Virus record (IMG/VR): IMGVR_UViG_3300017987_005500
DNA: 64,000 nt
Strand: one strand, 5' to 3'
Source: a virus
Lineage: Duplodnaviria; Heunggongvirae; Uroviricota; Caudoviricetes
Shown here: in pieces, positions 15,593 to 61,120 of the stretch
Numbering within the stretch: position 1 is the stretch's first letter
How the letters are laid out: every line of letters starts with the position of its first letter
Translations under genes and position numbers: made by a program
The notes under the pieces: generated by a model
What the model was told of the DNA's origin: nothing
The model's input: the letters and a program-made list of their open reading frames with translations, nothing else
Database searches by the model: none

Positions 15593-16028
15593 TATGGAAG
15601 ATCCAAGAGTTGAGAAACTTCAAGAGTTAGTTAGGAAAATGAACTCATTGATTTCCCCAATGAGCTATCATGATACATTAAAAGATTTAAGAACAAAACC
15701 TGCCGGTGAAGTGTTTAAAGGAAATGCAACAAAATGTATCATTCCATGGAAAAAGGGAGCTCAATTAGTACAAATTCCTATTTGTAATAGGATGGGAATG
15801 ATAGATCCTCAAATGATAGAGTTTGGTAAAAAGATGGTAAATAAAATGAGATCAGTGAGTCCTCAAGATGATAGTGGTGGAGCTGATATAATCATTGCCA
15901 AATTAGATAAATTGCATAAAAAGTATAGCAAAGATATTCCAAAACCATCTGATAGAGCTGCCCAACATGGACAAGTTACAAAATTCACAAATAAAATACT
16001 AAAGAATATTAAAGGACATTTAACGTAA
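15534..16028 (+). CDS. Hypothetical basic protein coupled to RNAP beta' (likely start MEDP at 15594)
   Basis: RBS ggaggg before 15594; TAATG overlap with beta'. Confidence 0.55.
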   Translation: MMIVLMIVHFVMETITRRVDMEDPRVEKLQELVRKMNSLISPMSYHDTLKDLRTKPAGEVFKGNATKCIIPWKKGAQLVQIPICNRMGMIDPQMIEFGKKMVNKMRSVSPQDDSGGADIIIAKLDKLHKKYSKDIPKPSDRAAQHGQVTKFTNKILKNIKGHLT

Positions 16029-19000
16029 TGTTAGATCTTTTAAATGTTAATGATTTCACAAAAGGACTTGATTTAATATCATCTACAGAGATCGCAACTA
16101 AAGATGGCGGATTTCATGTAAATGGATTATTCTCAGAGTCCATTTTTGGAACAGTAGGTTCCAATGAAAGACGAACAACATATGCTTATATTGATTTAGG
16201 AGCAAATGTAATTCACCCAACAATGATACGTTTTCTTTATAGACTTGATGGAAAAATAAAATCTTTTATATCAACTGAACATACATATGAAGTTGATAAA
16301 GAAACGGGTGAACTTGTCCAATCTCCTGATGGAGTTTCTGGTATAGCTGCTTTTATTAAATTGTTTCCAAAGATTAAATTCAATCTTGGAACTCCAGCAA
16401 GAGAAAAAATTAATGCCTCTGTTCAAGCTGCCTATAAAGATAAGTCTATTTTTATTAATAAACTTCCAGTTATTCCACCTGGTTATAGAGATGCTTATCA
16501 AGATGAATCTGGAGATTGGGTAGTTGATAAACTTAATGATTATTATATTACTATAATGAGGCGAGCTGTTAATGTAACAACATCATCTGGATCAGGTATT
16601 CTTTTTGATCTGATGAATTATGGTTTACAGCAAGCAGTCATTGATCATGATAAATATATCCAAACTCGTATTGCTAAAAAGTCTGGAATTATAAGAAGTC
16701 AAATGTTGGGAAAACGAATTGATTTTTCAGCTAGATCTGTAATTACACCAGGTCCTGACTTAAAAATTAATGAGATTGGAATTCCTTTAAGAATTGCAGC
16801 AACAATATTTGAACCATTTTTAATTCATCGTCTTTTATATTCTGGAATTGTTGATCAAGACTCATTATCTAAGGAAGTTGAAGAGTTTGTTGGAATTCCT
16901 CTATCTGTAGATAGTGTAAGAAAAGTCATTAAATCAATAAGAGTTGGTGATAAAATTCCTGAAGCATTATATAATATTTTTGCAGAATCAACCGAAGCTG
17001 TTATGCACGGAAGAGCAGTTATTGCAAAACGAGATCCAGCACTTCACGCAGAATCAGTAAGAGCATTTACTCCAATTTTAACTCATGGAAATAATGTACA
17101 AATATGCACATTGCAAGTAACTGGATTTAATGCTGACTTTGATGGAGATACAATGTTAGTTTGTCATCCTTTGAGTAATGAAGCTCAAGAAGAGATTCAA
17201 GAAAAAATGATGAAAGCTAAATCTGGTGAGTCATCAACTGCAATAACATTTGAATTAAATAAGGAAATGTATGTAGGACTTTATACAATAACGAAAGATA
17301 TTAAGTCCACAAAAGCAGCAATCGCTGTAACTGATAAAGATTTAGAAGATGCATCAAATCCTTATATTCCAGTAGTTTATAGAAAACAAAATACCACAAT
17401 GGGAAAAGCAATATTCAATAGTTGTTTTCCTCCCACCTTTCCTTATGTAAATAAATTGATAACCAAAAAAGTAGTTAATAAAATAATTGATGAATTATTT
17501 AAAAAATACGACGATGATATTGTTAGAGAATCCGTATCTAAACTTGCTAAAGTTGGTTTTAAATTTGCTACAATCATTGCCCCATCTATAAGTATTCAAG
17601 ACTTTGAACTTCCTCCAGCTATATATGAAATTAAAAAGAAACTTGATAAAGTTCCTATTGATGAAGCTCAAAGATTGTTAGATGATGCTCAAAAAATTCT
17701 TGCAAAACATCTTGAAGATACTGGGTTTCATGATTTGATAGAGTCTGGTTCTGGAAAAGGTTGGAGTCAACCAATGCAAATTCTTGTAGCGAAAGGAATT
17801 ATTGCTGACCCAGATGGAAATGTTTTAGAACCTATTAAGGGATCTTTCGCAGATGGATTATCAAATGAGGAATTTTATAATGCAGCTCCAGGTGCTATGA
17901 AAGGAATAATTGATAGAGTCCATAATACTGCTGAAACAGGATATTTATCAAGAAGATTAGCTTTTGTGCTTAATACAGTTGAAGCTGATCCTTATCTTAG
18001 AGATTGCAAAACTAAAAGAACTTTAAATCTTAAAGCAGAACCTGATTTAGTAAGAAGGATGGTAGGAAGATTTGTATTAAAAAATGGAAAACCAGTTTTA
18101 TTTGATCCCAATGATTTTAAAACAGGGGATTTAATTCAATTAAGAAGTCCGATATATTGTGAAAGTCCTAAGATTTGTTATACTTGCTACGGCGAACTAA
18201 TAAAGAGAGTTGGTTCCCCTTACATAGGAATTGTATCAGCTCAGATAATTGGAGAAAGAGGAACTCAATTAATTATGAGAACCTTCCATACAGGTGGAGC
18301 TACTAAAATAGATAAAAAAGATATGATCTCCGATATTATTGATGGGGACGCATTTGTAACAAAGGATGTTGTTAAATCTAAACTTAGACAAGAAGGTAAT
18401 TCATTAGTATGTTTAGATGATTGCAAAATAACTATAGGACTTAATAATTATGAATCTGAAGATGTTGCAATTAAAGAAGATGAGAATGTAGTTTGGTTAA
18501 GAAGCTTAATTTGTAATATAAGCTTTGAAGATACAGAATTCTCTATAATTCTTGATTATATTATAAATGTAAATATTATAAATGGAAATATAGAAGGTAA
18601 TGCAAAAAGTGAAGTAATTCAACTAAATTATCCAAAAGGCAGTACAATTTTAGAATGTACATTAGAGTCAATTGAATTGAAAAAACAAATTCAATTTATT
18701 GATAGACTTCTCAGCGGAAGGGAAATATATAAAAATACAGAACATGTATTTAGACGAATATTTAAAATATACCAAGAACATTCAGGAATGGATTTAGTTC
18801 ATTTAGAAGTTTTATTATCTAATTGTTTTAGATGGAAAGATAATTTAGCTTATCCTGCAAGACTTGGAAAAACATGGGATCCTGTCATGATTAATGTGAA
18901 GAATTTAGTTTTCAATACAGGGTTTGTAAATGGTTTGGCATTTGAAAATATTACAAAAGCTATTGAAATGGGATTAATTGCACAAGAAGATGTACCACCA

Positions 19001-19054
19001 TCTGTATTAGAGAAGGTAATGACAGGAACACTAATTGAGGAAACTAAAAAATAA
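16028..19054 (+). CDS. rpoC: Multisubunit RNA polymerase beta'-like subunit, copy 1 (putative virion RNAP)
   Basis: GLFSESIFG, PVIPP..R, LGKRIDFSARSVI, RDPALH, catalytic NADFDGD, TAETGYLSRR, CYTCYG, TQLIMRTFHTGG; lacks the N-terminal zinc-ribbon cysteines. Confidence 0.95.
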   Translation: MLDLLNVNDFTKGLDLISSTEIATKDGGFHVNGLFSESIFGTVGSNERRTTYAYIDLGANVIHPTMIRFLYRLDGKIKSFISTEHTYEVDKETGELVQSPDGVSGIAAFIKLFPKIKFNLGTPAREKINASVQAAYKDKSIFINKLPVIPPGYRDAYQDESGDWVVDKLNDYYITIMRRAVNVTTSSGSGILFDLMNYGLQQAVIDHDKYIQTRIAKKSGIIRSQMLGKRIDFSARSVITPGPDLKINEIGIPLRIAATIFEPFLIHRLLYSGIVDQDSLSKEVEEFVGIPLSVDSVRKVIKSIRVGDKIPEALYNIFAESTEAVMHGRAVIAKRDPALHAESVRAFTPILTHGNNVQICTLQVTGFNADFDGDTMLVCHPLSNEAQEEIQEKMMKAKSGESSTAITFELNKEMYVGLYTITKDIKSTKAAIAVTDKDLEDASNPYIPVVYRKQNTTMGKAIFNSCFPPTFPYVNKLITKKVVNKIIDELFKKYDDDIVRESVSKLAKVGFKFATIIAPSISIQDFELPPAIYEIKKKLDKVPIDEAQRLLDDAQKILAKHLEDTGFHDLIESGSGKGWSQPMQILVAKGIIADPDGNVLEPIKGSFADGLSNEEFYNAAPGAMKGIIDRVHNTAETGYLSRRLAFVLNTVEADPYLRDCKTKRTLNLKAEPDLVRRMVGRFVLKNGKPVLFDPNDFKTGDLIQLRSPIYCESPKICYTCYGELIKRVGSPYIGIVSAQIIGERGTQLIMRTFHTGGATKIDKKDMISDIIDGDAFVTKDVVKSKLRQEGNSLVCLDDCKITIGLNNYESEDVAIKEDENVVWLRSLICNISFEDTEFSIILDYIINVNIINGNIEGNAKSEVIQLNYPKGSTILECTLESIELKKQIQFIDRLLSGREIYKNTEHVFRRIFKIYQEHSGMDLVHLEVLLSNCFRWKDNLAYPARLGKTWDPVMINVKNLVFNTGFVNGLAFENITKAIEMGLIAQEDVPPSVLEKVMTGTLIEETKK

Positions 19055-22000
19055 TGAAGCAATATAAAGTCCTAAAACCTTATTCTCAGGTTTCTAAAAA
19101 ATTAAGTTTTAAATTGGAACGAGACAATCCGTACATTCTCTTTTATTTTCCAGAAAATACAACATTACTTGAAACATATCCTGCATTGGACTTAAGAATA
19201 ATAGATTTTAGGAATGTAATTGTTCCACTTACAAAAATTCCAAGAACTCGCTTAACATCTACATTGAAGAAATTATATAGATCATTAAAGTTGTATGCTA
19301 ATGGAACCAATGAAAAATATCCTGAGAATAAAAATTTAATATTTGATTATTCAACTTATTTAAGATCTATAGATGTTACATATAAACCTATAAGTTATAG
19401 ACAGCGAACAGGATTTTTGATTAAGAATTTATTTTTTATGACAGCTAATCAATTTCCTGAAAATTATAAAAAGATTTTATTGTACAATATTGTACTTGAA
19501 AATAATTTTGATCCAACGTTTGTAAATAGGAAATCATTTCCTATTGTTCAACAATTAAAAGATGAATCATTTCCTTTTGACGATCTTCTTCTTTGCATTA
19601 CTCATAATAATACATCTACGTTTAGACTTTTGGTCAGAGATAAAGAATTTTCTTTACCAAGGACTTTACAATATTTGAAAACTATTAAACCTATAAATGT
19701 TGAAGAAGAGGAAGAAAAAGAATTAAATGATGCATCTACAGCAGTAGCTAAAAAGATAGATGTAAAACCAAAAGATAAAAAGACTGTTAATGTTGCAGTC
19801 AATAATTATTTATCAACTTCTCCAGCTGACTTAGAAAAGATTTCAACTGGAAAAGCAACTAAAGCTGATGAAGAAAGAATAGCTGTTGCATCATTATTAT
19901 ATAGGACATCAGGAGATTTATCTAAAGCTAAAAAAATAGCAAATTCAATTCCTCCTAAAAAGAGAGCAATTGCATTAAAGAGAATTGATAAACAACTCGT
20001 TGATGAATTGATTCCACCTAAAGATTCTATAAACTTATCATCCGAAGTTGTTGTGCAATCATCTAATGTTCAAAAAGTAGTCGATAAAAAAACACCTGAA
20101 CACATATTTGAAAAGAGAAAAGTTGATTATAAAGTTAATCTCACAAAGGATATGGCAAATGCATTTAAGATGCTTGAAAATAAAGAAGTTCCTTTGAAGA
20201 TTGAAAAAATAAAAATAGTTGAGCAACCTGATAAACCAGGAGAGATTGACCCAACTGATAAATCAACAATTGAAGTTATGCTTAAAGATAAATCTGGAAC
20301 ATCTCATAAAATTGAAATTGATGTTCCAAGGATTAATCCAGAGACAGGAATATTTAGAGTATATGGACAAAAGAAATGTTTGATAAATCAAATTATTCAA
20401 TGTCCAATAACATTTCCTAAACCACATGAGTCACGATTTGAAAGTTCATATTCAAAATTTAGAATATGGGTTGTGATGACAAAAAGAATGAATTATCTTC
20501 ATTCATATATGGGTGGTTGTAAGATACCTCTTTTAATAATGCTCTCGTATTCATATGGTTTTGAAAGGACATTAAAACAATATGGAATAGGATATAAAAT
20601 AAGCGACATTAAACCAAGTAAGGACGCGAAATTTGCGATTAAAATAGATGATAGGTATATATATTTCACAAAAGTTGACACCCCATTAAAGGAGCAATTG
20701 GTTAACTCATTCATCTATGCAAAACCATCGAAATATAAGATTGATTATGAATTTGGAAGCAAGATGTATTTCAATGAATTAATAATAGCTATAACAGGAA
20801 GAATCAATTCAACATATTTAATTCAATCAAATCTTGAAAATATAGTAACACCTGTTGCTCATCAAGTTCTTGTTAATCAACAACTTCCTACACAACTTGA
20901 GCAAATAATGAAATATATGGCAACTAATTGTGTAGCTGGTAAAGAGATTAAGAGAAATGATTTAAGCAACCAAAGAATAAGAAATTCAGAAGTTATTGTT
21001 GATTTAGCTCAAAGTAGAATATTAGCTGCTTATACTGAGTATAAAGAGCAAATATTATCAGGAAACAATGACGCTGTATTCAATATTCCTAAAGGAGTTG
21101 TTTTAGCAGACTTTAATAAAATTGAAAATGTTCAAACAATGGAGTATGCAAATCCTCTTGAAGAAATGGCAACATTGTCAAGAGTAACTCCTGTAGGAAA
21201 AACGGTTGGAGGAATTCCTGATAAAAGAGCTATAACTGCGGATGCTTTAAATGTTGATAAATCTTATTTTGGAAATATTGATTTATATGACACACCAGAA
21301 GGTGAGAATATTGGAGTTGTTCAACAATTGACAGTTGATGCTCATATTACATCAGCAAGAGGTCTTTTCAAAACAATCCCACTTTCTAATAAAGAGAATG
21401 CAGGGCTTTTATCAACAACAACTTCAATGATTCCTTTTGTATCTCATAATGATGGGAATAGGATTATGATGGCGGCAAGTCAAGCAAAACAAATGCTTCC
21501 ACTTAAAAATCCAGAACCTCCAGTTGTTCAATCGGGATATGAATCATTGCTTACAAATACATTATCTGATAGTTTTGTAAAGAAGTCCCCATGCACAGGA
21601 AAAGTTGCATCAATTTCAAGAGATGCAATTACATTGGTATGCTCAAATGGAAAAAAGCAAACAATTGACACAACTCCTGTTCATCTTAAATCAGGTTCTG
21701 GAAAAGATACTTTAAGTGTATTTAATCCAACTGTTATTAAAGGACAAACTATAAAAAGTGGTAATGTACTTGCTGAAGGAAGTTGTATTTCTCAAGGAAG
21801 TATTGCTTTAGGTAGGACATTGCTTGCTGCAGTTATGCCATATAAAGGATATAATTATGAAGATGGTGTAACGATAAGCGAGACATTAGTTCATCAAGAT
21901 AAGTTAACATCTTTACATGGAATAATTGTAGAGGTAACTGTATCTGAAAATGATCGTTTAGTTTATATTTCTGAAATGGGTGATAAAACTAAAAAGGGTG

Positions 22001-23139
22001 AAACAATTCTCAGAAAGACAGTAGGTGAAATTGAGGAATTAATTGGTATTGATGATGATGAAGATTCAACTGATATTTTAGCTGGACAACTTATCAAGAA
22101 AAGTCCAGGTGGAACAATTGTTGACATTGAAGTATTTTCAAATATGACAACTGATAAATTTCCTCAACTTAAATCATTAATTTCAAGAACAAGAAAGAGA
22201 TATAAAAACCCAACTAAGAAATTTTTGATTAAAGGAAGAAGCATTAATGGAATGTTGATAAGATTTAAAATAGAACAAGAACTTCCAATTGGTCTTGGCG
22301 ATAAACTTGCTAATAGACATGGTAATAAAGGTATTGTCTCATTAGTTGAAAAAGAAGAAAATATGCCAAGGACTCCGTGGGGAGATAGAGTTGAAATTGT
22401 ATTAAATCCTCTTGGAATTATTGGAAGAATGAATGTTGGTCAAATTTATGAATTGTATTGTGGATTAATCGGCAGAGAACTTGCTAAAAAATCAATCTCA
22501 TTAAATTCAAAATCAAATGTAGTTAATTTATTTAAAGCTATATTATCTCAATTAGATAATACAAAAGATAAACAATTTAGCTCAGATTTTATTAAAAATT
22601 TAAGAGGTCTTAACAGAGCAAATTACAATTTAATGTTAGAGCAAATGAAAAAGACAGGATTCGCCCCAATCGTAGTTCCTCCATTTCAAACTCCTACTTA
22701 TAAAAATATTCTTGCAGCAATGAAAATGTTAGATCTTAAACAAGGATATAAACTTTATTTGCCTGACTATAATACAAAAACGAATTATGAAGTTCCAGTT
22801 GGTTATCAATATATTACAAAACTTGAACATATGGGTGAAGCAAAACTACATGCTAGATCCACAGGACCCGTTACTTCAAAAACATTGCAACCGACTGCAG
22901 GAAAGAGAAGCGAAGGTGGTCAGAGATTAGGCGAAATGGACACATATTCATTTCTTTCATATAATGCGACAAAAACATTATCTGAACTTATGGGTCCTAT
23001 GAGCGATGATATCGTGACCAAAAATGAAATGTTATCTGAAATAATTCAAACAGGTCAAGTTGAATATAAACCAACTAAAACTTCACCGGTAAGGGATCTA
23101 TTAAATGCTTATATGGTTGCCCTTATGCTAGGAAAGTAA
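19054..23139 (+). CDS. rpoB: Multisubunit RNA polymerase beta-like subunit, copy 1, with about 360-aa N-terminal extension
   Basis: DTPEGENIG, IPFVSHNDGNRIMMAASQAKQ, GYNYEDG, GDKLANRHGNKG, LNPLG...RMNVGQ, KLEH, GGQRLGEMD. Confidence 0.95.
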   Translation: MKQYKVLKPYSQVSKKLSFKLERDNPYILFYFPENTTLLETYPALDLRIIDFRNVIVPLTKIPRTRLTSTLKKLYRSLKLYANGTNEKYPENKNLIFDYSTYLRSIDVTYKPISYRQRTGFLIKNLFFMTANQFPENYKKILLYNIVLENNFDPTFVNRKSFPIVQQLKDESFPFDDLLLCITHNNTSTFRLLVRDKEFSLPRTLQYLKTIKPINVEEEEEKELNDASTAVAKKIDVKPKDKKTVNVAVNNYLSTSPADLEKISTGKATKADEERIAVASLLYRTSGDLSKAKKIANSIPPKKRAIALKRIDKQLVDELIPPKDSINLSSEVVVQSSNVQKVVDKKTPEHIFEKRKVDYKVNLTKDMANAFKMLENKEVPLKIEKIKIVEQPDKPGEIDPTDKSTIEVMLKDKSGTSHKIEIDVPRINPETGIFRVYGQKKCLINQIIQCPITFPKPHESRFESSYSKFRIWVVMTKRMNYLHSYMGGCKIPLLIMLSYSYGFERTLKQYGIGYKISDIKPSKDAKFAIKIDDRYIYFTKVDTPLKEQLVNSFIYAKPSKYKIDYEFGSKMYFNELIIAITGRINSTYLIQSNLENIVTPVAHQVLVNQQLPTQLEQIMKYMATNCVAGKEIKRNDLSNQRIRNSEVIVDLAQSRILAAYTEYKEQILSGNNDAVFNIPKGVVLADFNKIENVQTMEYANPLEEMATLSRVTPVGKTVGGIPDKRAITADALNVDKSYFGNIDLYDTPEGENIGVVQQLTVDAHITSARGLFKTIPLSNKENAGLLSTTTSMIPFVSHNDGNRIMMAASQAKQMLPLKNPEPPVVQSGYESLLTNTLSDSFVKKSPCTGKVASISRDAITLVCSNGKKQTIDTTPVHLKSGSGKDTLSVFNPTVIKGQTIKSGNVLAEGSCISQGSIALGRTLLAAVMPYKGYNYEDGVTISETLVHQDKLTSLHGIIVEVTVSENDRLVYISEMGDKTKKGETILRKTVGEIEELIGIDDDEDSTDILAGQLIKKSPGGTIVDIEVFSNMTTDKFPQLKSLISRTRKRYKNPTKKFLIKGRSINGMLIRFKIEQELPIGLGDKLANRHGNKGIVSLVEKEENMPRTPWGDRVEIVLNPLGIIGRMNVGQIYELYCGLIGRELAKKSISLNSKSNVVNLFKAILSQLDNTKDKQFSSDFIKNLRGLNRANYNLMLEQMKKTGFAPIVVPPFQTPTYKNILAAMKMLDLKQGYKLYLPDYNTKTNYEVPVGYQYITKLEHMGEAKLHARSTGPVTSKTLQPTAGKRSEGGQRLGEMDTYSFLSYNATKTLSELMGPMSDDIVTKNEMLSEIIQTGQVEYKPTKTSPVRDLLNAYMVALMLGK

Positions 23140-45233: not shown

Positions 45234-46255
45234 ATAAAATTCATATAGTTAACTTATTAGTAACAAGAAAATGCAATCTTAGGTGCTCATATTGTGGTAT
45301 AGTAAGAAATATGAAGACATTACCAAAAACATATCCAAAGATGAAACATTATTATGATAACGAAATGAGCACTAAATTAATTTTAAATTTTCTTGAAAAA
45401 CTTAAAAACCATAATCCCGACGCATTTGTAATTATTTACGGAGGTGAGCCAATATTGCGCTCAGATTTATTTGAAATTGTGCAATATTGCAATGATCTTA
45501 AATTAGGTTATACAATTATAAGCAATAATACAATTGAACTTCAGGATAAACTTGACGACTTATTAAATACTGTACATGTTGCGGGTTATACTGCCTCAAT
45601 AGATCCACTTATTATATCTGATTCAACTGACGTTGATCGTAGAGTTAAAAGCGAACAAGGTCTTGAAAGATTACTTCAATATAAGTATATAATTAAAGAT
45701 CTTGTTGCTGAGATTACAGTTGATAAAAATAATGTTCCATATTTATATGACCTTGTTAAAAAGTTATCAGATTTGGGAATTAATAGTGATATTACATTCA
45801 TAGATACAGCTAAGAGTCCTTATTATGATTTTTCAAATATAAATGATCCAAATCTTTTGATTAAAGACACAATTGAAGTAAAGAAAATATTTGACCGAAT
45901 TATTAAAGATAATCTAGATGTACATATGGCGAAGAGTTTATTACCCAAAATAGTTGAAGCTCTTCCATCTAAATTAGACTGTAAAATGGAAAAAGATATT
46001 AATACAATATGTGTTGATGCTGATGGGACAATGAGACTTTGTCTTCGGATAAAAGGAACGTCAACACCAAGAGTAGAAATTGACAAATTATTTGCACAGA
46101 ATGGAAAATTGGATCCATTCTTTATAGACTCAATTAAAACTGACAAACAAAACTATTGTCGCTTATGTAATCATACATGTTATATTATGGGAGACCTTAT
46201 ATCCAAAGGGGTGAGTTCTTCAGAATTAGTACATGAGGACAAGAGAGGAGACTAA
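45212..46255 (+). CDS. Radical SAM protein with Twitch/SPASM-like C-terminus
   Basis: CNLRCSYC, GGEP, SID; C-terminal C..ICVDADG..LC...CRLCNHTC. Confidence 0.85.
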   Translation: MEGRKIMNKIHIVNLLVTRKCNLRCSYCGIVRNMKTLPKTYPKMKHYYDNEMSTKLILNFLEKLKNHNPDAFVIIYGGEPILRSDLFEIVQYCNDLKLGYTIISNNTIELQDKLDDLLNTVHVAGYTASIDPLIISDSTDVDRRVKSEQGLERLLQYKYIIKDLVAEITVDKNNVPYLYDLVKKLSDLGINSDITFIDTAKSPYYDFSNINDPNLLIKDTIEVKKIFDRIIKDNLDVHMAKSLLPKIVEALPSKLDCKMEKDINTICVDADGTMRLCLRIKGTSTPRVEIDKLFAQNGKLDPFFIDSIKTDKQNYCRLCNHTCYIMGDLISKGVSSSELVHEDKRGD

Positions 46256-51646: not shown

Positions 51647-52328
51647 GAATATTAAGATAATTGGTCTTGGTGGAATTGGTTCAATTCTTACTGACAAAAT
51701 TTGCAGATTTATGTCATTTGGTAAATTTGCAAATGATGACTGGACAATCACTTTAATTGATGGTGATGACTACGAACCCAAAAACAGGGAAAGACAAGAT
51801 TTTATATACTTAAAGAACAAAGCATTATCCAAACAAGAAGAGCTTAATGCCAAGTATGGTGTCAATACAGTTCAATATGTTGTTGAGTCTTATATTGATC
51901 AAGACAATGTAAAACAATATATTGGATCAGGCGATTTAGTCTTTATGTGTGTGGATAATCACCAATCCCGTAAATTGATATCCGACCATGCGGGAACGTT
52001 AGACGACGTTATAATTGTTTCTGGAGGAAATGACTACATTGATGGAAATGTGCAAGTATACGGAAGAGAAAATGGAAAAGACATTTCCCCATCATTAACA
52101 TCTTTTCATCCTGAAATAGACAGTCCTGATGATAAACACCCAAGCGATATGTCATGTGAAGAATTGGCAGACTCAGTTCCTCAATTATACTTTGCCAATT
52201 TGACTGCGGCAACAGTTATGTGCTGGGTTTTATATGCTTTGATTCAGGAAAAATTTAACTTTGGAAAACCTGAAGTTTATTTTGACATCGAGATGATGTC
52301 AATTGTAGGCAAGATGAGAGCTGTTTAA
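51627..52328 (+). CDS. ThiF/E1-like activating enzyme
   Basis: IIGLGGIGS, DGD.YE.KN.ERQ, K, CVDN..SR, SGGN; candidate catalytic Cys177 (MSCEE) followed by PQL..AN. Confidence 0.9.
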   Translation: MMSMEIKNIKIIGLGGIGSILTDKICRFMSFGKFANDDWTITLIDGDDYEPKNRERQDFIYLKNKALSKQEELNAKYGVNTVQYVVESYIDQDNVKQYIGSGDLVFMCVDNHQSRKLISDHAGTLDDVIIVSGGNDYIDGNVQVYGRENGKDISPSLTSFHPEIDSPDDKHPSDMSCEELADSVPQLYFANLTAATVMCWVLYALIQEKFNFGKPEVYFDIEMMSIVGKMRAV

Positions 52329-52349
52329 CGAAAAACTATTTAACGAAAA
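52324..52349 (+). repeat. TTTAACGAAAA direct repeat (2 copies) in the Ubl leader
   Basis: Copies at 52324-52334 and 52339-52349. Confidence 0.55.
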
Positions 52350-52360
52350 GGATTAAGAAA

Positions 52361-52888
52361 ATGGCATCAAAGTACACAAAAGAGAAACTGTCCAAACTTA
52401 ACAATGTTGAACTCCGAGAAATTTGCAAGAAAAAGAAAATTCCTGGAATGTCAAAGAAACGTAAAGATGTTATGGTTGACGCAATACTTCTTGCTCATGG
52501 CGGAACGAAAGCAAATGCCAAATCTTCCAAGAAAGCTAAGACTCTCGGAATTGGAAAAGATGGCGAACCAACTAAAAATGCTTCCGAAGCAAAGAAAGAT
52601 GACAAACTTCAAGCTGCAACATTTACTCTTAGCAGTGTTTTGACAAAACCATCTGCAAAATATGGTGATCGAACAACCACGACAATTCGCGTATCATCCG
52701 GCGCAGCTGCAGGCGACTTCCCTGTAACAGGAAGAACAGTATCTTCTGTTAAATCATTCCTCTCTGAAGTTCTCAATATTTCCAAAATGTCTTCTCCAAT
52801 CGTCAATGGAAAACAGGTTGAAGATAATTATGTAATCAAACAAGGTGATGAACTTGAGTTCTTGAAACCAGCAGGTCAGAAAGGGTAA
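52361..52888 (+). CDS. Ubiquitin-like (beta-grasp) protein with N-terminal HeH/Rho-N/SAP-like domain and C-terminal Gly
   Basis: aa 5-45 L.KL...ELREICKK..IPG.SK.RK..MVDAIL; aa 105-175 G.TV..V..L...LNI..VNG..V...Y.IKQGDELEF.K.AGQKG. Confidence 0.82.
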   Translation: MASKYTKEKLSKLNNVELREICKKKKIPGMSKKRKDVMVDAILLAHGGTKANAKSSKKAKTLGIGKDGEPTKNASEAKKDDKLQAATFTLSSVLTKPSAKYGDRTTTTIRVSSGAAAGDFPVTGRTVSSVKSFLSEVLNISKMSSPIVNGKQVEDNYVIKQGDELEFLKPAGQKG

Positions 52889-52908
52889 TTAATTTAATCA
52901 ATAGACTT

Positions 52909-52928
52909 CTATATATATAATTATATGA
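52909..52928 (+). promoter_or_regulatory. Putative promoter, motif class A, copy 4
   Basis: CTATATATATAATTATATGA (last two bases run into the hairpin). Confidence 0.5.
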
Positions 52929-52969
52929 GAAGGGGAATTTTTGTAATATAAAATTTCCCTCTCATATAA
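52921..52969 (+). terminator. Long imperfect inverted repeat after the Ubl gene
   Basis: TTATATGAGAAGGGGAATTTT...AAAATTTCCCTCTCATATAA, about 20-bp stem with one bulge and one G-U pair. Confidence 0.6.
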
Positions 52970-52992
52970 ATTATTTAGGAGACTTTTTTATT

Positions 52993-53397
52993 ATGACCGT
53001 TAAAATCACAAAAGATTGTGGAGATGGAAAATTTATAGCAGAGAATGAAAAAGGACAATCATTTAAAATCTTTACAGTTGATAGAGCTAAAATTCAAAAA
53101 AGTCATGACGACAGAGTTGCACAAGTTGCACAAGCAATAAATAAAGACGACATAGAAAGATTATTTTTAACAACTTTAGAATATTCAACTAAACCAATTG
53201 ATATAGATCATTGGAGAAAACTTGCTGAGGATTTAACTGTTTTCTTGAAAAGGTTATATACTCAAATTGGAAATCCTAATATTTTTCATCATTACATTAA
53301 AAATATTGATCCAGATTATTATGGTAAAGCTGATACATTTAGGAAGGAATGCAAATCTTTACATAAGATATGTATAGAGATTAAAAATAAACCTTGA
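52993..53397 (+). CDS. Hypothetical protein
   Basis: ORF with aggag RBS. Confidence 0.5.
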   Translation: MTVKITKDCGDGKFIAENEKGQSFKIFTVDRAKIQKSHDDRVAQVAQAINKDDIERLFLTTLEYSTKPIDIDHWRKLAEDLTVFLKRLYTQIGNPNIFHHYIKNIDPDYYGKADTFRKECKSLHKICIEIKNKP

Positions 53398-53457
53398 CAA
53401 TTTAAAGTACTAATACAATTATTATATGTAATTTAAAACGAAAGGTGGTGATAAACG

Positions 53458-53703
53458 TTGGCATATTCTGAGAAGGATGACAAACTTATAAAGTTATTTG
53501 AATTTGGAGATGAGGATGCAGCACTACATTTTTCTATATTCTCATATGATGGAGGACCCAGGAAAATCCAAATGACAAGAATGTTTAAGAAGAAAGACAA
53601 CACACAAGGTTATGGTAAAGCAGGAAGAATGACTATCGAGGAAATGAAATATTTAAGAGATAATTTAGATGAAATCATTTCCGTAATGGAAGGAGAAAAT
53701 TGA
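53458..53703 (+). CDS. PC4/YdbC-like ssDNA-binding transcriptional coactivator-like protein
   Basis: SYDGGPRKIQM.R...GK.GRMT.EEM..L; TTG start with aggtggtg RBS. Confidence 0.7.
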   Translation: MAYSEKDDKLIKLFEFGDEDAALHFSIFSYDGGPRKIQMTRMFKKKDNTQGYGKAGRMTIEEMKYLRDNLDEIISVMEGEN

Positions 53704-53734
53704 ACAAATTAAATTGTTAGGATAGGGGAGTAAC

Positions 53735-54607
53735 ATGCGTATTTGCGTTATTGGGTTGGGCACAATAGGTGGATTCTTTTCACAATTTATTTCTGACTTT
53801 AGAGATGTGACTCATTTGACTATTATAGATTATGATAAAGTTGAAAAGAAAAATCTAAAAAATACTGTTTTCAAGAGAAAACATATTGGGATGTTAAAGA
53901 TTGACGCAGTTGAAGAAATTATCAAAGAAACAAATGAAAAAATTACCCTATCGAAGTATGACATAGAGTTTAATGAAGACAAATTTGATTTAACGCCATA
54001 TGATTATGTGGTTGATTGTAGGGACTTCACTTACAATCGAAGAAAAGTTAACATAAGACTTTATTTTTCAGGAAGACAATTAATTGTAGATTGCAGAAAG
54101 AAAGCGACCTACGAAACTCCAATGGAAGGTTATTATACAACAAAGCTTACAAAAACAGATGTTATTGGAGCTGTTAATGCTGTTGCATTATTATTTAACA
54201 AAAAGATTGTGAATAAATTTATAGACGAAGAGATAGTATATCGTTATGAACTTGATGGATCGAATATCGAAGCATGTGAATATATTGATCAAAGATCAAA
54301 AACTCCTGATATATTATATGAGTCCTGTGATGCGGAGACAAATAAAGGAGAAGACTCTCTAATTAATTTACATGAGAATCTCCAACCAATTTTGGATATG
54401 AATACAAAATCTGCTACGACATTATTCGTTGGACCAAAAGACTTTCCAACTATGGAAAAAGAATTTCCGGCTGGAACATTAACATCGTTTTCAGATGTTA
54501 TAAAATCCCTTGTGAATGCTATTAATTTACCATTTGCATATAATTACTATGTAGTATCTTCAGGGAAAAATGTTATTGAGTTGATTCCTGATACAGGAGC
54601 TGCTTAG
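53735..54607 (+). CDS. Second ThiF/E1-like enzyme with probable C-terminal beta-grasp (Ubl-like) domain
   Basis: VIGLGTIG, IDYDKVE.KNL, G..K, VVDC.D; C-terminus ends VIELIPDTGAA. Confidence 0.78.
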   Translation: MRICVIGLGTIGGFFSQFISDFRDVTHLTIIDYDKVEKKNLKNTVFKRKHIGMLKIDAVEEIIKETNEKITLSKYDIEFNEDKFDLTPYDYVVDCRDFTYNRRKVNIRLYFSGRQLIVDCRKKATYETPMEGYYTTKLTKTDVIGAVNAVALLFNKKIVNKFIDEEIVYRYELDGSNIEACEYIDQRSKTPDILYESCDAETNKGEDSLINLHENLQPILDMNTKSATTLFVGPKDFPTMEKEFPAGTLTSFSDVIKSLVNAINLPFAYNYYVVSSGKNVIELIPDTGAA

Positions 54608-55151: not shown

Positions 55152-55152
55152 A

Positions 55153-55371
55153 ATGGAAGGAATCTTAGGAGAGCAAGTACGTAAAGAAATTGAAGCGATT
55201 ATAGATGAAAAGATAAATGATAAAGAAAATAAACTGACAAAAGACGAACTCAATGAGATTGTCTCTTCTTTGATTCCTTCATTAGATGAACTTGTTGCTA
55301 AACAAGTAAAACACCATATGGTTCTTATAGCACAGTATGTGATTGAACAACATGGAGGGAAATCAAATTAA
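55153..55371 (+). CDS. Small helical protein coupled to beta' copy 2
   Basis: RBS aggag; TAATG overlap. Confidence 0.55.
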   Translation: MEGILGEQVRKEIEAIIDEKINDKENKLTKDELNEIVSSLIPSLDELVAKQVKHHMVLIAQYVIEQHGGKSN

Positions 55372-58067
55372 TGCCAAAACTACTGGATCAGAAAAAATTC
55401 TGTGAAGATCTTAAGGAAGTGACATCTCCTAAACCAATAATTAAGAGAAGATTTCATCCTGATGGACTCTTCTCTGAGCAAATCTTTGGTCCTATTAAGA
55501 ATTACACATGTCAATGTGGTACGTATTATGGTGTTTCAAAATCTGGAGGAACTTGTCCAATATGCGAAGTTGACATTTTAAGTTCTGTGGAAAGAAGAAG
55601 AAGGTTTGCAAAAATCACTTTGCCAATTCCAGTTGTAAATCCTTTATTTTATGATTTACTTGTGAATTTAGGTGGAAGTGATTTAAAGAAAGTCATTGAT
55701 GTTCTCATGAAAGATGAGAAAAGTATTTTGTATATGCATGAAGATGAATATGTTGCAACAACCGAAGCTTCTGTAATTCCAGAAGGAGCAGCAAGAATTG
55801 ATCGAATTGAAGCTATTGAAGAATTAATTAAAACATTAGCTACTGGACTTTCAGCTGATGGAATTCCTGAATGGAAAATGGTACTTGATAATATTGATAA
55901 ATTGCTTTTACATGAAATTGTAGTATTACCAGCTGATTTAAGACCTGCTTCAAGAGGAATTGATAGCGCACATCAAAAGGCAGATACCATTAATAGATAT
56001 TATACGCAAATTCTCACAAAACGAGAGATAATGCTTTCAACTATAATTGACATTAAGCAGGATAAATCAATATATTATCAATATTATACTCCTCTACAAA
56101 AAGATGTGAATGAATTATATAATCACATCTTAGAAAAATTATCAAAGAAGGAAGGACTTATACGGGGAAATATATTAGGAAAGAGAATTGATTTCTCTGG
56201 CAGAGCAGTTATAATTCCCGACCCGTTACTTAAACTTGATCATTGCTGTTTACCATATCTTATGGTACTTGAATTATTCAAAATTCAAATAGCAAAGAAG
56301 CTTATTGAAAAGAATAAATTCAAGATGATTAATCAAGCAGTTGACTTTATTGAAAAATGTATGGAACTCGACAGTCCCGTATTATTTGAAATTGCTAAGG
56401 AAGTGATTGAAGGTGAAGTATGTATGTTGAATAGACAACCTTCTTTACACAGACTTAGCATGACTGGATTTTATATTACAATATCTTTAGATAAAGTAAT
56501 TAAAATTCACCCATTATCTTGCTCAGGATTTAATGCAGATTTTGATGGTGATCAAATGGCAGTTTATATTCCAATAACTGAAAAAGCAAAACAAGAAATC
56601 ATTGAAAAATGTTTGATCACAAGAAATTTCATAAATCCATCAAATGGAAGTTTGGCACCAACACCCTCGCAAGATATAATATTAGGAATATATGCTTTAA
56701 CCTCAAATGTTTTCCCCGACTTAAGAAATGAGGTTGAGTTTAAGGGCAAAATGATCACGGAAGGGAGGAAAATATTTAATGCCTGCCTTCCTGATGATTA
56801 TCCGATTATTGACGATGTAGTTATAAGCAAGAGACTTATTAGAATATTAAATGACGTAGAGTCAAAATATATATTCTCAGTTACTACAAAAGTTCTTGAT
56901 CATATTAAAAGAGTTGGATTTAAATATTCAACTCTATTTGGAGCAACTATTTCCTTAGGTCAATGTAAGATTGATGGAGTTAGGAGTTTCAGAGATACGT
57001 TATACGAAAGTGATGAAGTTTCAACACAATTAGAGCAAGTTAATGGTTCTTTAGCTACAAATATGCTTAAAGAAAATTTTGCATATTCATATATGATAGA
57101 GTCAGGATCACGAGGTTCTTGGGATCAAGCACGACAAATACTCCTTACGAGAGGGTTTATTTCAAATTTTAATTTGGAAATATTACCTGAACCAATTAAA
57201 CATTCATTGATTGAAGGGTTGACAAGAAGAGAATTCTTTCTTTCAACTTATGGATGTCGTAAAGGATTATTAGACGTTGCCTTGAATACCGGGACCTCAG
57301 GATACCTTTCTCGAAAACTGATTTTTGCATGTGTAAATGTAGAAATTGATCTTGAATTAGAAGATTGTGGTACTGAAGATTGTTTAGAAGTTTATGTTGA
57401 TGATGCACCAAAAGCAATTCTTCTAATAGATAGATATTATGTAAAAGATGGTGAGTATATTAAGATAACAATGGATAATTTCAAAGATATAGTTGGAGAA
57501 GTTATCAAAATAAGAAGTCCAATATTTTGTAAATCTCCTCAGATATGTCATAAGTGTTATGGGGATTTATGGAAAAAACTTCACAGCAGATATGTTGGAG
57601 TAATTGCTGCTCAATCATTAGGAGAATGTAATACTCAATTAGTTCTTAGGACATTTCATACGTCGGGTGTTGCAACTTCCAAAGGAGATATGCATCAAGA
57701 TGATATTGTTGGGGATTTATCAAATGCCTCAAAGAGTCTTCATGATGTAAAGAATAGCAATTATAAAGATATTGTTGATAAGTTATTTAAGATTTACAAT
57801 ACAAATCGAAAAATTTACCATGTTCATTTTGAATGTGTAGTTTCACAGTTAATGTGGGCAGGGTATCGAAAATGGAGACTCCTTGAAAATAGAGATTCTG
57901 TGCCACCTGAGTATATCTCAGTTCAAACGGTACCGAGTAATGAGAGTTGGTTATTAGGACTCGCATTTTCAAGACCAAGGCAGCATATTGTAAGAGGATT
58001 ATTCAAAGCTGGTAATTATCAAGGTGTTATGGATAAACTATTAACAGGAGAGGATATACATAGATGA
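55371..58067 (+). CDS. rpoC: Multisubunit RNA polymerase beta'-like subunit, copy 2 (putative non-virion RNAP)
   Basis: DGLFSEQIFGP, zinc ribbon CQCG..CPIC, LGKRIDFSGRAVI, LNRQPSLHR, NADFDGDQM, TSGYLSRK, CHKCYG, TQLVLRTFH. Confidence 0.96.
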   Translation: MPKLLDQKKFCEDLKEVTSPKPIIKRRFHPDGLFSEQIFGPIKNYTCQCGTYYGVSKSGGTCPICEVDILSSVERRRRFAKITLPIPVVNPLFYDLLVNLGGSDLKKVIDVLMKDEKSILYMHEDEYVATTEASVIPEGAARIDRIEAIEELIKTLATGLSADGIPEWKMVLDNIDKLLLHEIVVLPADLRPASRGIDSAHQKADTINRYYTQILTKREIMLSTIIDIKQDKSIYYQYYTPLQKDVNELYNHILEKLSKKEGLIRGNILGKRIDFSGRAVIIPDPLLKLDHCCLPYLMVLELFKIQIAKKLIEKNKFKMINQAVDFIEKCMELDSPVLFEIAKEVIEGEVCMLNRQPSLHRLSMTGFYITISLDKVIKIHPLSCSGFNADFDGDQMAVYIPITEKAKQEIIEKCLITRNFINPSNGSLAPTPSQDIILGIYALTSNVFPDLRNEVEFKGKMITEGRKIFNACLPDDYPIIDDVVISKRLIRILNDVESKYIFSVTTKVLDHIKRVGFKYSTLFGATISLGQCKIDGVRSFRDTLYESDEVSTQLEQVNGSLATNMLKENFAYSYMIESGSRGSWDQARQILLTRGFISNFNLEILPEPIKHSLIEGLTRREFFLSTYGCRKGLLDVALNTGTSGYLSRKLIFACVNVEIDLELEDCGTEDCLEVYVDDAPKAILLIDRYYVKDGEYIKITMDNFKDIVGEVIKIRSPIFCKSPQICHKCYGDLWKKLHSRYVGVIAAQSLGECNTQLVLRTFHTSGVATSKGDMHQDDIVGDLSNASKSLHDVKNSNYKDIVDKLFKIYNTNRKIYHVHFECVVSQLMWAGYRKWRLLENRDSVPPEYISVQTVPSNESWLLGLAFSRPRQHIVRGLFKAGNYQGVMDKLLTGEDIHR

Positions 58068-61000
58068 AAGTGATTAACCCAAACTTTGTGCTTGATGAAG
58101 AAAATAATATTTTCAGGATTCGAGAAAATGAATTTGGGTCACTTGAGTCCACAATTCGGGAGATGCTAAAACCGGCCGAAGCGCTTGGATTTAGTGTCCC
58201 CGAGTTCGGGATTCGTGATTCAAGGTTTTCGTCACGAGATCTTGCAAGAACAGTAAAACAGAAATTAGTTATTAAATTAGCTAAGGGAGAACATGTTTTA
58301 GATCTCTCAATGGATATTCCAAAATTGATTGATGGAAATTATATCATCATAAATGGAAAACAGAAGATCCCTCAATTTCAATTATTTGATGTTCCAATTG
58401 TAACTCGTGGTAAAAATATAAAAATAAGAACAAATGTAGCAACTGTCGTAGTTGTCCCTAAGAAAGAAGAACCATATATTCATATTACTTTCTTAGGAAA
58501 AATGGTTCCTTTATCATTAATGTTATTTGCATATTTTGGAATTGAAGAAGTAAATAGAAAATTTAACTTAAGTTCTCAAACACCAGCTGACACAATTCCA
58601 ACAAATATGTATGATAAATTGATATCTGATTTAACAATGTTCTATGCTGAATCAGATGGTTATACTCAAGATGACTTTATCAAAGAAGTGGGAAGAATTT
58701 ATTCTCAGTATAACTCAAAATCAAAAGGTGAAGATGTTATGTACGCCTTAGATTTGATAATGGAAACTGATACAATATCAAAGAAACTCTTTATCACAGA
58801 TACTATATTGGATGAAGTTGTTTATGCAATTGAGCACCCTGACGATTTTGATGACACAGACTTTATCAATAAGAGAATAAGATGTTATGAATATATTCTT
58901 TTATCAAAAATATCCAAATATATATTTGACTTATGTATGTCAAATAGGACTGCGAGACAACCGAAATTTAATGTAAATTCAACAAAGATATTATCAGAGT
59001 GTAATGTATCTGACATTGTCCAATTTGATTTTTCAATAAATCCAGTTGAAGAACTTACAAGACTTTCAAGAACAAGTCTCATAGGTCCGGGTGGTTTTAA
59101 AAGAGAAAATGTTCCAGAGCATCTTAGAGATATTTCAAATAGTATGTTTGGCAGAGTTTGCTCAGTTGATACTCCTGATAGAGATAACTGTGGAATATTA
59201 CAAAACTTAGTACCAAATGTTAAACTTGATGAAAATTTGAAATTCACAGATGAAATATTAGAGAAGCAACCCATTTCAATTCCAGTTGCAATGGTACCTT
59301 TCTCAGAGCATGATGATCAAACCAGACTTCAAATGGCATCATCTCAAATGAGACAATCTGTATTAACAAAAAGTTTTGATTCACCTGATGTATATTCTGG
59401 GAGTGAATGGTTATATTCAAAAGAAACCCAGTTTTTGAAAGCAGCAAAGAAAGATGGTGAAGTTGTTTATACAGATGATAATTATATAATTGTTGTCTAT
59501 GATGATAATGAAGTTGATATAATCAATGTTTCTTATAGAAAGATATATGTAGGAAATATGGATTGGATGAAAATATATGTGAAGCAAGGAGATAAAGTTA
59601 AGAAAAATGATATTCTTGCTGAGAGTATGTTTATGAATGATGGTAAAATCAACTTTGGTCGAAAGTTGTTAACTGCTGTAATTCCTTATTTTGGATATAA
59701 CTATGAGGACGGAATTGTTATATCTGATAGAATAGTTGAGGATGATGTTTTCACTTCAATGCATTATGTTGATTTATCATTTACAATTCCACCAAATAAA
59801 GTTTTATTAAGTTTATCTAATGATGGTGAATATAAACCATTACCTGAAGTTAAAGATCCTGGAGGAGGAAAACCTATAATTCATGATAGGATAGGAGTTG
59901 GAAAACCTTATGCTATAATGAAAGATATTAATTCAGGTATACATTGTTATAGTGTATTTGATGAAGAAATTAAACTGACCGCTAAAAAACAAGTGTTAAT
60001 CTCAGAGGTTAATATTTACCCGAACACTTGGAACACTGAAATGCCTCAATATGACAAATGGGTTAAAGATAAAATTGAAAGTCAAAAGAAAAAGCAAAAA
60101 GACTTTCTTAAAATGTTAAAAGATTATATACCAAAATCTCAAATGAGTAAAATTATAAGAGAGGAAGGACTTAATAAATTCTCTCAAGTTGGAAAATATA
60201 GATATAAGAGAGAAGAGATAAATGGTATTCATATTGAGATGTATGGGATTTTTGAAAGAAAAATAAATCCTGGTGATAAGATTGCAAATCGACATGGTAA
60301 TAAAGGTGTTATTTCAAAGATAATGCCAAGAGAAAAAATGCCAAAACTTCCTGATGGGAGACACGTGGATATTTGTATCAACCCACTTGGTATTATAAGC
60401 AGGATGAATATAGGACAAATATTTGAGTTGCATCTCTCAATGTCCGTAAATGATTTAAGACAAAAGATGTTAGAGTCATTGAAAAATGGCGGAAAAAGAG
60501 AAGACCTTATCAATTATTTCCTTGGTTATATCAAATGCATTGACAATACTGAGAATAATTGGTATACTACACAAATGGTGGAGAAGCTAAAAGATATTGA
60601 AATTGACGAAGATTTCATCAATAACATATTTGTAATTCAACCTCCATTTGAATCAGTGACATTAGAGATGCTTGATCAGGCAATGCAATATACAAATACG
60701 GACTACGATTATAAATTACTTGATCCAATGTCAAAAAGTGAAATATTCAATGATATCGCAGTCGGGTATATATATTTCTTTAAAATGGTCCATATTGCTG
60801 AAAACAGATTAGCAGCAAGAGGAATTGGATCTTACTCAAGAAAGACTTTGCAACCTCTTGGGGGAAGAAGGAATAAAGGTGGGCAGAGATCTGGAGAAAT
60901 GGAAATGGCATGTTTAATAGGTCATGACGCTGCCACAAACTTAAATGAATTTACGACTACGAAGTCAGACTGCATTGATAGGAAAAATAGATATATCAGA

Positions 61001-61120
61001 GCAGAGATTGAGTCTACAGAGTTTGACCCAGATAAAGATGATGATGGATGCAATATTGCTGAGTCAGTTCTCTTATTTGAATCATCTCTAATATGTGTAG
61101 GACTTGATCCAAAGGATTAA
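58064..61120 (+). CDS. rpoB: Multisubunit RNA polymerase beta-like subunit, copy 2
   Basis: GPGG, DTPDRDNCG, PFSEHDDQTRLQMASSQMRQ, GYNYEDG, GDKIANRHGNKG, INPLG...RMNIGQ, GGQRSGEME. Confidence 0.96.
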   Translation: MKVINPNFVLDEENNIFRIRENEFGSLESTIREMLKPAEALGFSVPEFGIRDSRFSSRDLARTVKQKLVIKLAKGEHVLDLSMDIPKLIDGNYIIINGKQKIPQFQLFDVPIVTRGKNIKIRTNVATVVVVPKKEEPYIHITFLGKMVPLSLMLFAYFGIEEVNRKFNLSSQTPADTIPTNMYDKLISDLTMFYAESDGYTQDDFIKEVGRIYSQYNSKSKGEDVMYALDLIMETDTISKKLFITDTILDEVVYAIEHPDDFDDTDFINKRIRCYEYILLSKISKYIFDLCMSNRTARQPKFNVNSTKILSECNVSDIVQFDFSINPVEELTRLSRTSLIGPGGFKRENVPEHLRDISNSMFGRVCSVDTPDRDNCGILQNLVPNVKLDENLKFTDEILEKQPISIPVAMVPFSEHDDQTRLQMASSQMRQSVLTKSFDSPDVYSGSEWLYSKETQFLKAAKKDGEVVYTDDNYIIVVYDDNEVDIINVSYRKIYVGNMDWMKIYVKQGDKVKKNDILAESMFMNDGKINFGRKLLTAVIPYFGYNYEDGIVISDRIVEDDVFTSMHYVDLSFTIPPNKVLLSLSNDGEYKPLPEVKDPGGGKPIIHDRIGVGKPYAIMKDINSGIHCYSVFDEEIKLTAKKQVLISEVNIYPNTWNTEMPQYDKWVKDKIESQKKKQKDFLKMLKDYIPKSQMSKIIREEGLNKFSQVGKYRYKREEINGIHIEMYGIFERKINPGDKIANRHGNKGVISKIMPREKMPKLPDGRHVDICINPLGIISRMNIGQIFELHLSMSVNDLRQKMLESLKNGGKREDLINYFLGYIKCIDNTENNWYTTQMVEKLKDIEIDEDFINNIFVIQPPFESVTLEMLDQAMQYTNTDYDYKLLDPMSKSEIFNDIAVGYIYFFKMVHIAENRLAARGIGSYSRKTLQPLGGRRNKGGQRSGEMEMACLIGHDAATNLNEFTTTKSDCIDRKNRYIRAEIESTEFDPDKDDDGCNIAESVLLFESSLICVGLDPKD

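Follow-up and report, generated by a model that had tools for sequence, protein, structure and literature searches.

Two unsplit multisubunit RNA polymerases in a lineage of uncultured tailed phages, one of them related to the virion polymerases of phiKZ and AR9

We analysed a 64,000-nucleotide (nt) stretch of the IMG/VR virus record IMGVR_UViG_3300017987_005500 (Caudoviricetes), referred to here at its full length as the window, which carries genes for the beta' and the beta subunit of a multisubunit RNA polymerase (RNAP) twice. Pair 1 comprises a beta' gene at 16028-19054 (1008 amino acids, aa) and a beta gene at 19054-23139 (1361 aa); pair 2 comprises a beta' gene at 55371-58067 (898 aa) and a beta gene at 58064-61120 (1018 aa). 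All four are unsplit, single open reading frames (ORFs) on the + strand, arranged beta' then beta, and they lie exactly where the initial annotation had placed two such pairs (16028-23139 and 55371-61120), with the catalytic motifs intact: NADFDGD lies at beta' residue 368 in pair 1 and 388 in pair 2, and GDK..RHGNKG at beta residues 1082/1088 and 737/743, respectively. Pfam domains Rpb1 2/3/5 and Rpb2 3/6/7 were matched in the respective proteins (E values of 1e-19 to 1e-52 across all four), and pair 2 beta' matched Rpb1 domains 1-5. Both pairs therefore show the hallmarks of multisubunit double-psi beta-barrel RNAPs (Rpb1/Rpb2 domains, DxDGD and GDK..R.G.KG).

The two pairs differ considerably from one another, with 29% identity in beta' and around 25% in beta. 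As had been read from the sequence at the outset, pair 1 beta' carries KRDPALH and no zinc ribbon, whereas pair 2 beta' carries NRQPSLHR and, alone of the two, a CxC..CxxC zinc ribbon (CQCG..CPIC, residue 47). Pair 1 beta' thus has no N-terminal zinc-binding domain (ZBD), its N-terminus being of the type found in virion RNAPs (vRNAPs), and pair 1 beta has a long N-terminal region; pair 2, which keeps the ZBD, is compact in both subunits. The description of both pairs as compact holds only for pair 2, since the beta of pair 1 reaches the length of its bacterial counterpart. Searches of the window with Pfam and PHROGs found no alpha, omega or canonical sigma subunit, in line with the initial annotation at the level of such searches, although a 485-aa gene at 12934-14391 proved sigma-like by predicted fold, as described below.

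The DNA of the window belongs to an uncultured jumbo phage with a genome of about 300 kb, a member of mReC, the group of tailed phages with undivided beta and beta' genes published by Weinheimer and Aylward (2020, Nat Commun 11:4506; PMC7481178). Two unsplit RNAP cores are a conserved trait of this lineage. Both pairs are found on the IMG/VR contigs G001 (99 kb; beta' identity 49%) and G002 (73 kb; 58%), in identical gene order and with around 37.7 kb between them, compared with 39.3 kb in the window. Both pairs, again beta' then beta, are also present on Ga0315281_10000024 (185.6 kb; L195) and SOLA22 scaffold_12 (309.6 kb; L196), which share a gene of about 480 aa before pair 1 and two ThiF/E1 genes before pair 2. 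In a collection of 5.8 billion proteins, each beta' family formed more than 120 clusters of near-constant size, with relatives of about 1005 aa and 50-65% identity for pair 1 and of about 900 aa and 58-82% identity for pair 2; eight of the longest-contig sizes, between 101 and 310 kb, were common to the lists of both families.

We compared the two pairs with the vRNAPs and the non-virion RNAPs (nvRNAPs) of phiKZ and AR9 by means of PHROG families labelled using the phiKZ and AR9 proteins themselves. The vRNAP families were phrog_2986 (beta' N part; phiKZ gp180), phrog_2962 (beta' C part; phiKZ gp80, AR9 g264) and phrog_3148/phrog_14872 (beta; phiKZ gp178); the nvRNAP families were phrog_2987 (beta' N part; phiKZ gp55), phrog_3015 (beta' C part; phiKZ gp74, AR9 g154) and phrog_3295 (beta C part; phiKZ gp71-73, AR9 g089). 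The beta' N-part profiles gave a reciprocal pattern. Pair 1 scored 159 bits with the vRNAP profile phrog_2986 (E = 3e-46) versus 84 bits with the nvRNAP profile phrog_2987, and pair 2 scored 76 versus 128 bits, a preference that may only reflect the more canonical sequence of pair 2, because the nvRNAP profiles also match in nearly all control cells and the vRNAP profile in few. The vRNAP profile covers around 240 N-terminal residues of pair 1 beta', at twice its score for pair 2. For beta, pair 1 scored 148 bits with both phrog_3148 and phrog_3295 (matching phrog_3148/14872 at E = 5e-43), and pair 2 scored 73 versus 138 bits.

In blastp searches, the vRNAP beta' N-part ORFs of all six phages matched pair 1 only, and those of nvRNAPs favoured pair 2. 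The vRNAP beta proteins matched pair 1 beta better than pair 2 beta, N-terminal region included (residues 310-538 of the BpSp vRNAP beta align with residues 215-471 of pair 1 beta), and AR9 g105, the nvRNAP beta N part, matched pair 2 beta only. All eight pair 1 beta' proteins lack the ZBD, as do six of six vRNAP beta' N parts and the unsplit beta' of JD-Fnp1, a Fusobacterium phage, whereas pair 2, the mReC isolates, Bacteria and the majority of nvRNAP N parts have it. Profile-profile comparison (hhalign) of the region ahead of the beta' barrel domain placed pair 1 closest to the vRNAPs (score 272, E = 5e-40), followed by pair 2 (194), mReC isolates (141), Bacteria (83) and nvRNAPs (64). Pair 2 scored 155 against Bacteria in the same comparison and is 29-33% identical to bacterial beta'; PHROGs profiles found no match in it to the unique C-terminal domain of nvRNAP beta'.

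We then placed the enzymes in a maximum-likelihood tree of the beta' N half (43 rows, 499 columns, LG+C20+F+G4; support is given as ultrafast bootstrap / Shimodaira-Hasegawa-like approximate likelihood-ratio test, SH-aLRT). Pair 1 was sister to a group of vRNAPs and the unsplit JD-Fnp1 protein (94/90), and the nvRNAPs grouped with a split JD-Fnp1 N part (97/91). The tie between pair 1 and the virion RNAPs is drawn from the common loss of the ZBD, the best profile match and this sister position. Taken together, the comparisons give good but not decisive support for pair 1 as a slowly evolving, undivided sister of the virion RNAPs. Pair 2 is a core of the mReC type, canonical and compact, and falls with the single-set phage enzymes and Bacteria.

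Upstream of pair 1, the 485-aa gene at 12934-14391 (+ strand) encodes a candidate promoter-specificity subunit. In each of the five genomes examined (G001, G002, G003, L195 and L197), a homologue lies directly upstream of pair 1, and in L195 it overlaps pair 1 beta'. The protein had no significant match in PHROGs, Pfam or a PDB profile search, and a sequence search of phiKZ and AR9 found nothing. We built an AlphaFold2 model from five sequences and compared it with 350,542 PDB chains using Foldseek. The top three hits were 7s01_A (E = 2.5e-4, probability 1.0), 7um0_A and 8que_B, spanning E values of 2.5e-4 to 2.4e-2, with the next hit at 0.23. The chain identities were checked: 7s01_A and 7um0_A are AR9 gp226 and 8que_B is phiKZ gp68, the promoter-specificity (sigma-like) subunits of the non-virion enzymes. 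The sole stretch with detectable profile similarity, residues 160-241, aligns weakly by hhalign (E = 0.004) with gp226 residues 183-263, described as a sigma2-like domain (Fraser et al. 2022; PMC9209446). On this modelled fold, the 485-aa protein probably belongs to the gp226/gp68 family. Gene adjacency argues that it may work with pair 1.

Three small + strand genes (14439-16028) encoding 230-aa, 154-aa and 164-aa proteins separate the sigma-like gene from pair 1 beta' in the window. The first and third have no family match. The second (15128-15592), two genes upstream of beta' and inside the pair 1 operon, encodes a receiver-domain protein (PF00072 Response_reg, E = 4.8e-9, above the cut-off); a phosphorylation-type switch beside a phage RNAP is unusual.

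Two classes of promoter-like motif stand out in the intergenic DNA. The first, TATATAT[AT], had eight overlapping noncoding hits at four intergenic sites versus 0.5 expected; sites of the form (C/T)TATATATAT lie between genes at 12870, 24025, 44402 and 52910, with hardly any in coding DNA. Putative promoters of this class, CTATATATAT on the + strand, lie upstream of the sigma-like gene (12869-12878) and upstream of the gene block running into pair 2 (52909-52918), and CTATATAT also precedes the homologue of the 485-aa gene in G001 and L195. The second class, AGAAC[AT]A, had five noncoding hits (1571, 14410, 24049, 28990 and 39928) versus 0.8 expected. Ahead of the pair 1 operon it forms part of a 22-nt putative promoter, TAAGAACAAAAACTAAATTAAT (14408-14429, + strand), and the window has two intergenic copies of an extended form, TAAGAACAAAAA..AAATTAAT, at 1569 and 14408. 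The block with the baseplate-hub gene follows the near-identical copy at 1569, and this is what the earlier remark on copy 1 and a motif common to structural genes referred to. With one mismatch allowed, TAAGAACAAA was not enriched over the whole window (18 matches versus 20.5 expected) and is notable only for its intergenic placement. The corresponding place before the pair 1 operon holds, in G001 and L197, a terminator-like hairpin and, behind it, AGAACAAA. The (C/T)TATATATAT class is a candidate promoter class distinct from AGAAC[AT]A, and the separate promoter-like sites and hairpins argue that the 485-aa gene and pair 1 may be expressed separately. The AACA core of the second class recalls the late promoter of AR9, which is read by nvRNAP-gp226 (PMC9209446).

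In front of pair 2 the picture is less clear. The role of CTATATATAT at 52909 for pair 2 is uncertain because the site is 5' of a terminator-like hairpin, and the 6 kb upstream of pair 2 showed no such motif in either L194 or L196; over the same distance in two relatives, neither the TATATAT site (52910) nor a GAACAAA site (53702) of the window is kept. The G+C-rich hairpins followed by T runs, at 52925-52975 (GAGAAGGGGAATTTT..AAAATTTCCCTCTC) and 44440-44500 (TTCGGGGAAGACAATT..AATTGTCTTCCCCAA), resemble intrinsic terminators, which suggests that classical hairpins terminate transcription by at least one phage polymerase or by the host enzyme.

We propose that the phage brings its own transcription machinery, consisting of two beta'+beta cores and a sigma-like subunit of the gp226/gp68 family. 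In this scheme, pair 1 would be made late, from the AGAACA-type promoter common to the structural-gene block, and packed into the particle, so that upon injection it could start transcription by reading early sites. Pair 2, probably with the sigma-like subunit, would then take over the middle and late genes, and together they would read the AACA sites that yield late pair 1 and the structural proteins. We rate such an AR9/phiKZ-like cascade with a packaged pair 1 as slightly better than an even prospect.

Several observations weigh against this reading. Every genome examined has the 485-aa gene next to pair 1 and not to pair 2, unlike phiKZ, in which the gp68 gene is near the nvRNAP genes, and the model of its product has low confidence (predicted local distance difference test score, pLDDT, 56.6). 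None of the four RNAP subunits, those of pair 1 included, has a capsid-targeting-like N-terminal leader (xxI[DEQ]xYLxxL), which in the window occurs only on a 69-aa gene at 8888. The motif classes do not cleanly separate the two pairs, because GAACAAA at 53702 lies 33 nt upstream of the block leading into pair 2. In the beta' tree, pair 2 groups with mReC isolates and Bacteria (97/94), apart from the nvRNAPs, and the approximately unbiased (AU) test gave a borderline p = 0.046 for a clade of pair 2 and nvRNAPs, although the placement of the nvRNAPs is not trustworthy because their branches are very long. In the beta tree, pair 1, pair 2, vRNAP, Carin-5 and Bacteria radiate as a star. Of the initial assignment of copy 1 to the virion type and copy 2 to the non-virion type, the first half is therefore consistent with the kinship of pair 1 in ZBD loss, profiles and tree, and the tree position of pair 2 gives the second half no clear support.

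Some of these points would fit a different arrangement, in which neither enzyme is packaged. Pair 1 and the sigma-like protein would form a phage-specific holoenzyme, the functional equivalent of nvRNAP-gp68/gp226, and pair 2, with its ZBD and canonical sigma-contact elements, would use a host or phage sigma factor at another stage or on other templates. The constant linkage of the sigma-like gene to pair 1, in five of five genomes and with an overlap in one, is consistent with this idea, as are the untagged N-termini of pair 1; Cobetia phage Carin-5 has a canonical sigma gene directly before its single beta'-beta set, and pair 2 groups with such single-set enzymes. By contrast, the specific relatives of the pair 1 catalytic subunits are virion RNAPs and not nvRNAPs, a terminator-like hairpin and/or another promoter-like motif lies between the sigma-like gene and the pair 1 operon in three of four relatives, and no sigma factor was found in the window for pair 2 to use. 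We regard this arrangement as unlikely, though deserving of serious consideration.

The kinship of pair 1 could itself be misleading if the two pairs were paralogues that arose by duplication inside mReC, the likeness of pair 1 to vRNAPs being the product of parallel ZBD loss and rate artefacts. The N-terminus of pair 2 is more similar to that of pair 1 than to Bacteria (hhalign scores of 194 and 155), the AU test does not quite reject a clade of the two pairs (p = 0.051, log-likelihood difference 15.2; borderline), the beta tree does not separate them, and Weinheimer and Aylward found all mReC RNAPs in one clade, with phiKZ-like enzymes left out (PMC7481178). However, the best beta' tree has pair 1 with the vRNAPs and pair 2 beyond the 97/94 split, the vRNAP profile favours pair 1 twofold over its N-terminal residues, vRNAP beta prefers pair 1 beta even in the N-terminal region, and JD-Fnp1 provides an intermediate in which an unsplit virion-type beta' and beta exist alongside a split non-virion-type beta'. 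Weighing these, we consider duplication inside mReC very improbable. Recent capture of a host rpoBC, or a chimeric assembly, has practically no chance of being correct and was rejected, as we found no evidence for it: a pattern scan of one genome per species across 185,579 prokaryote species recovered only ordinary rpoC, 29-33% identical to pair 2, Bacteria form a clade that contains neither pair (support 100/100 for beta' and, for beta, an SH-aLRT of 100), neither composition nor strand use changes along the window, and both pairs recur with the same neighbours and layout on independent contigs from different samples. Both are of non-cellular origin.

Some database entries for these families carry cellular names. 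Both beta' families have members in NCBI metagenome-assembled genomes that bear names of Asgard archaea, Heimdallarchaeaceae and Thorarchaeota (proteins P0111 and P0172); the labels are most likely a binning artefact in sediment metagenomes, showing only that binning of these contigs is unreliable and lending no support to capture. Separately, mobile elements have entered the RNAP genes of relatives. Ga0315281_10000024 has GIY-YIG homing endonuclease genes between pair 1 beta' and beta and just past beta (L195 9045-9650 and 13802-14476), and a pair 1 beta' homologue of 1389 aa (P0029) contains an intein domain (PF14890). Such insertions bear on the origin of the split phiKZ/AR9 genes.

The surroundings are those of a phage genome. 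The window has a G+C content of 31% throughout, and virtually all genes lie on the + strand with very short gaps. PHROGs and Pfam matches form a T4-like replication and recombination set, including a UvsX-like recombinase, a split topoisomerase II, SbcCD, a helicase and HNH endonucleases, together with the baseplate-hub-like gene; the context is therefore that of a large tailed phage. A tRNA scan found no tRNA genes in the window, which also has no capsid or terminase gene, and PF07068 (gp23 capsid) had no match in the IMG/VR fragments G001-G003, but none in the controls either. Chimallin and PhuZ tubulin were not recognisable in general PHROGs and Pfam scans of the window, which included no dedicated test for them.

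Two further gene groups accompany the RNAP genes. Directly 3' of pair 2, both in the window (61455-62342) and on SOLA22 scaffold_12 (L196), lies a FolE2 gene (GTP cyclohydrolase, E = 2.7e-62), and the window also encodes a QueD-like 6-pyruvoyl-tetrahydropterin synthase domain (33971-35023) and a QueE-like radical SAM protein (45212-46255), which suggests a 7-deazaguanine (preQ0-type) DNA modification pathway. A few kilobases upstream of pair 2 are two ThiF/E1-like genes (50579-54607), as also at 2536-4760 in L194 and 2393-5204 in L196; because the arrangement is kept in these two distant relatives, the ubiquitin-like module is a stable neighbour of the second RNAP.

It is possible, although we would put it somewhat below even, that the lineage keeps the ancestral, unsplit state of the phiKZ/AR9 two-polymerase programme, comprising a virion enzyme that lacks the ribbon, a second enzyme of canonical form and a sigma of the gp226/gp68 type. 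If so, the duplication into virion and non-virion enzymes would be older than the gene splits, and the splits would be derived, perhaps through homing endonucleases and inteins of the kind seen invading RNAP genes in relatives. Such a history would speak against split phage subunits as relics that predate the last universal common ancestor; split subunits have been argued to be primitive (Iyer et al. 2021; PMC7824862). It would also offer two-protein recombinant cores for a virion-type enzyme that is still unpurified: a virion RNAP of this class has never been purified because it is in five or more pieces (PMC7598289), and a two-gene version of the vRNAP type should be much easier to express and solve. 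An intact vRNAP-type pair beside a second core in a widespread lineage, together with JD-Fnp1, is in any case material for testing the origin of the fragmented enzymes.

The value of the findings is limited by what has been published, and the functional roles proposed here are putative. Published data already include the lineage and both gene sets, the two-set layout standing without comment in a supplement. The two unsplit RNAP cores described in the initial annotation are conserved across their lineage, but the claim of a strategy not seen before was overstated, both sets being listed in Supplementary Dataset 2 of PMC7481178. Reviews from 2020-2026 cover two-RNAP systems in split form only and give the origin of vRNAP and nvRNAP as unknown, and full-text searches of the literature found no paper linking these enzymes with mReC. 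Nor did we find in the literature the tie between pair 1 and vRNAPs, the shared loss of the zinc ribbon, the half-split state of JD-Fnp1 or the gp226/gp68-like gene.

Among known systems, mReC is the same lineage. Both pairs are unsplit beta/beta' genes on a tailed-phage contig that fall outside cellular clades, as mReC RNAPs do, and the relative G003 (IMG/VR UViG_3300002242_000614, 57,485 bp; 41% identity) is the published KVWGV2_10145934, with a beta of 1373 aa and a beta' of 1004 aa. Supplementary Dataset 2 lists 'a' sets (beta around 1362 aa, beta' around 1005 aa) and 'b' sets (around 1007 and 904 aa) on single contigs, for example 1362/1005 and 1007/904 for beta/beta' on SMTZ23_10000109, and these sizes match pair 1 and pair 2, respectively. 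The text of that paper treats RNAP as one marker and is silent on genomes with two sets; its trees omit phiKZ-like enzymes because of long-branch problems, and the paper does not contain the vRNAP link, the loss of the zinc-binding domain or the gp226/gp68-like gene (PMC7481178).

The vRNAPs of the phiKZ-like and AR9/PBS1-like jumbo phages (gp180/gp80/gp178/gp149 in phiKZ, g145/g264/g189 in AR9) resemble pair 1 in the type of beta' N-terminus, the absence of the ZBD, the N-terminal part of beta and the sister position in the beta' tree. They differ in having a core of at least five dispersed pieces, whereas pair 1 is two adjacent whole genes in the window and in all relatives, and NADFDGD and GDK..RHGNKG are degraded in phiKZ-like enzymes but canonical in pair 1, for which packaging is only proposed. 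The nvRNAP holoenzymes, AR9 gp270/gp154/gp105/gp089 with gp226 (PDB 7S01) and phiKZ gp55/gp74/gp123/gp71-73 with gp68 (PDB 7OGP, 8QUE), may have counterparts in a zinc-ribbon core (pair 2), a protein of gp226/gp68 size and predicted fold, and an AACA-containing promoter-like motif like that of the AR9 late promoter (PMC9209446). Unlike nvRNAP, pair 2 is unsplit and apart in the tree, and the sigma-like gene is beside pair 1.

Single-set unsplit phage RNAPs, found in Cobetia phage Carin-5, Rhizobium phage RHph_Y65 and Vibrio phage 1.031.O, have an unsplit zinc-ribbon beta'; Carin-5 shares the beta'-then-beta order of the window and has an annotated sigma gene before beta'. These phages carry one set only, at 22-28% identity to either pair. 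The cultured Fusobacterium phage JD-Fnp1 (ON464759), whose isolation paper nowhere uses the term 'RNA polymerase' (PMC9670143), has an unsplit vRNAP-type beta' of 935 aa without a ZBD, annotated as 'subunit alpha', and a virion-type beta of 1488 aa, whereas on the non-virion side a beta' N part of 490 aa and a beta C part of 635 aa are encoded separately; the genes are dispersed (L031 6004-8796; W05, ON464759, 94921-98739, 100985-101995 and 73643-75337). As judged from these sequences, JD-Fnp1 represents a state intermediate between the lineage of the window and phiKZ.

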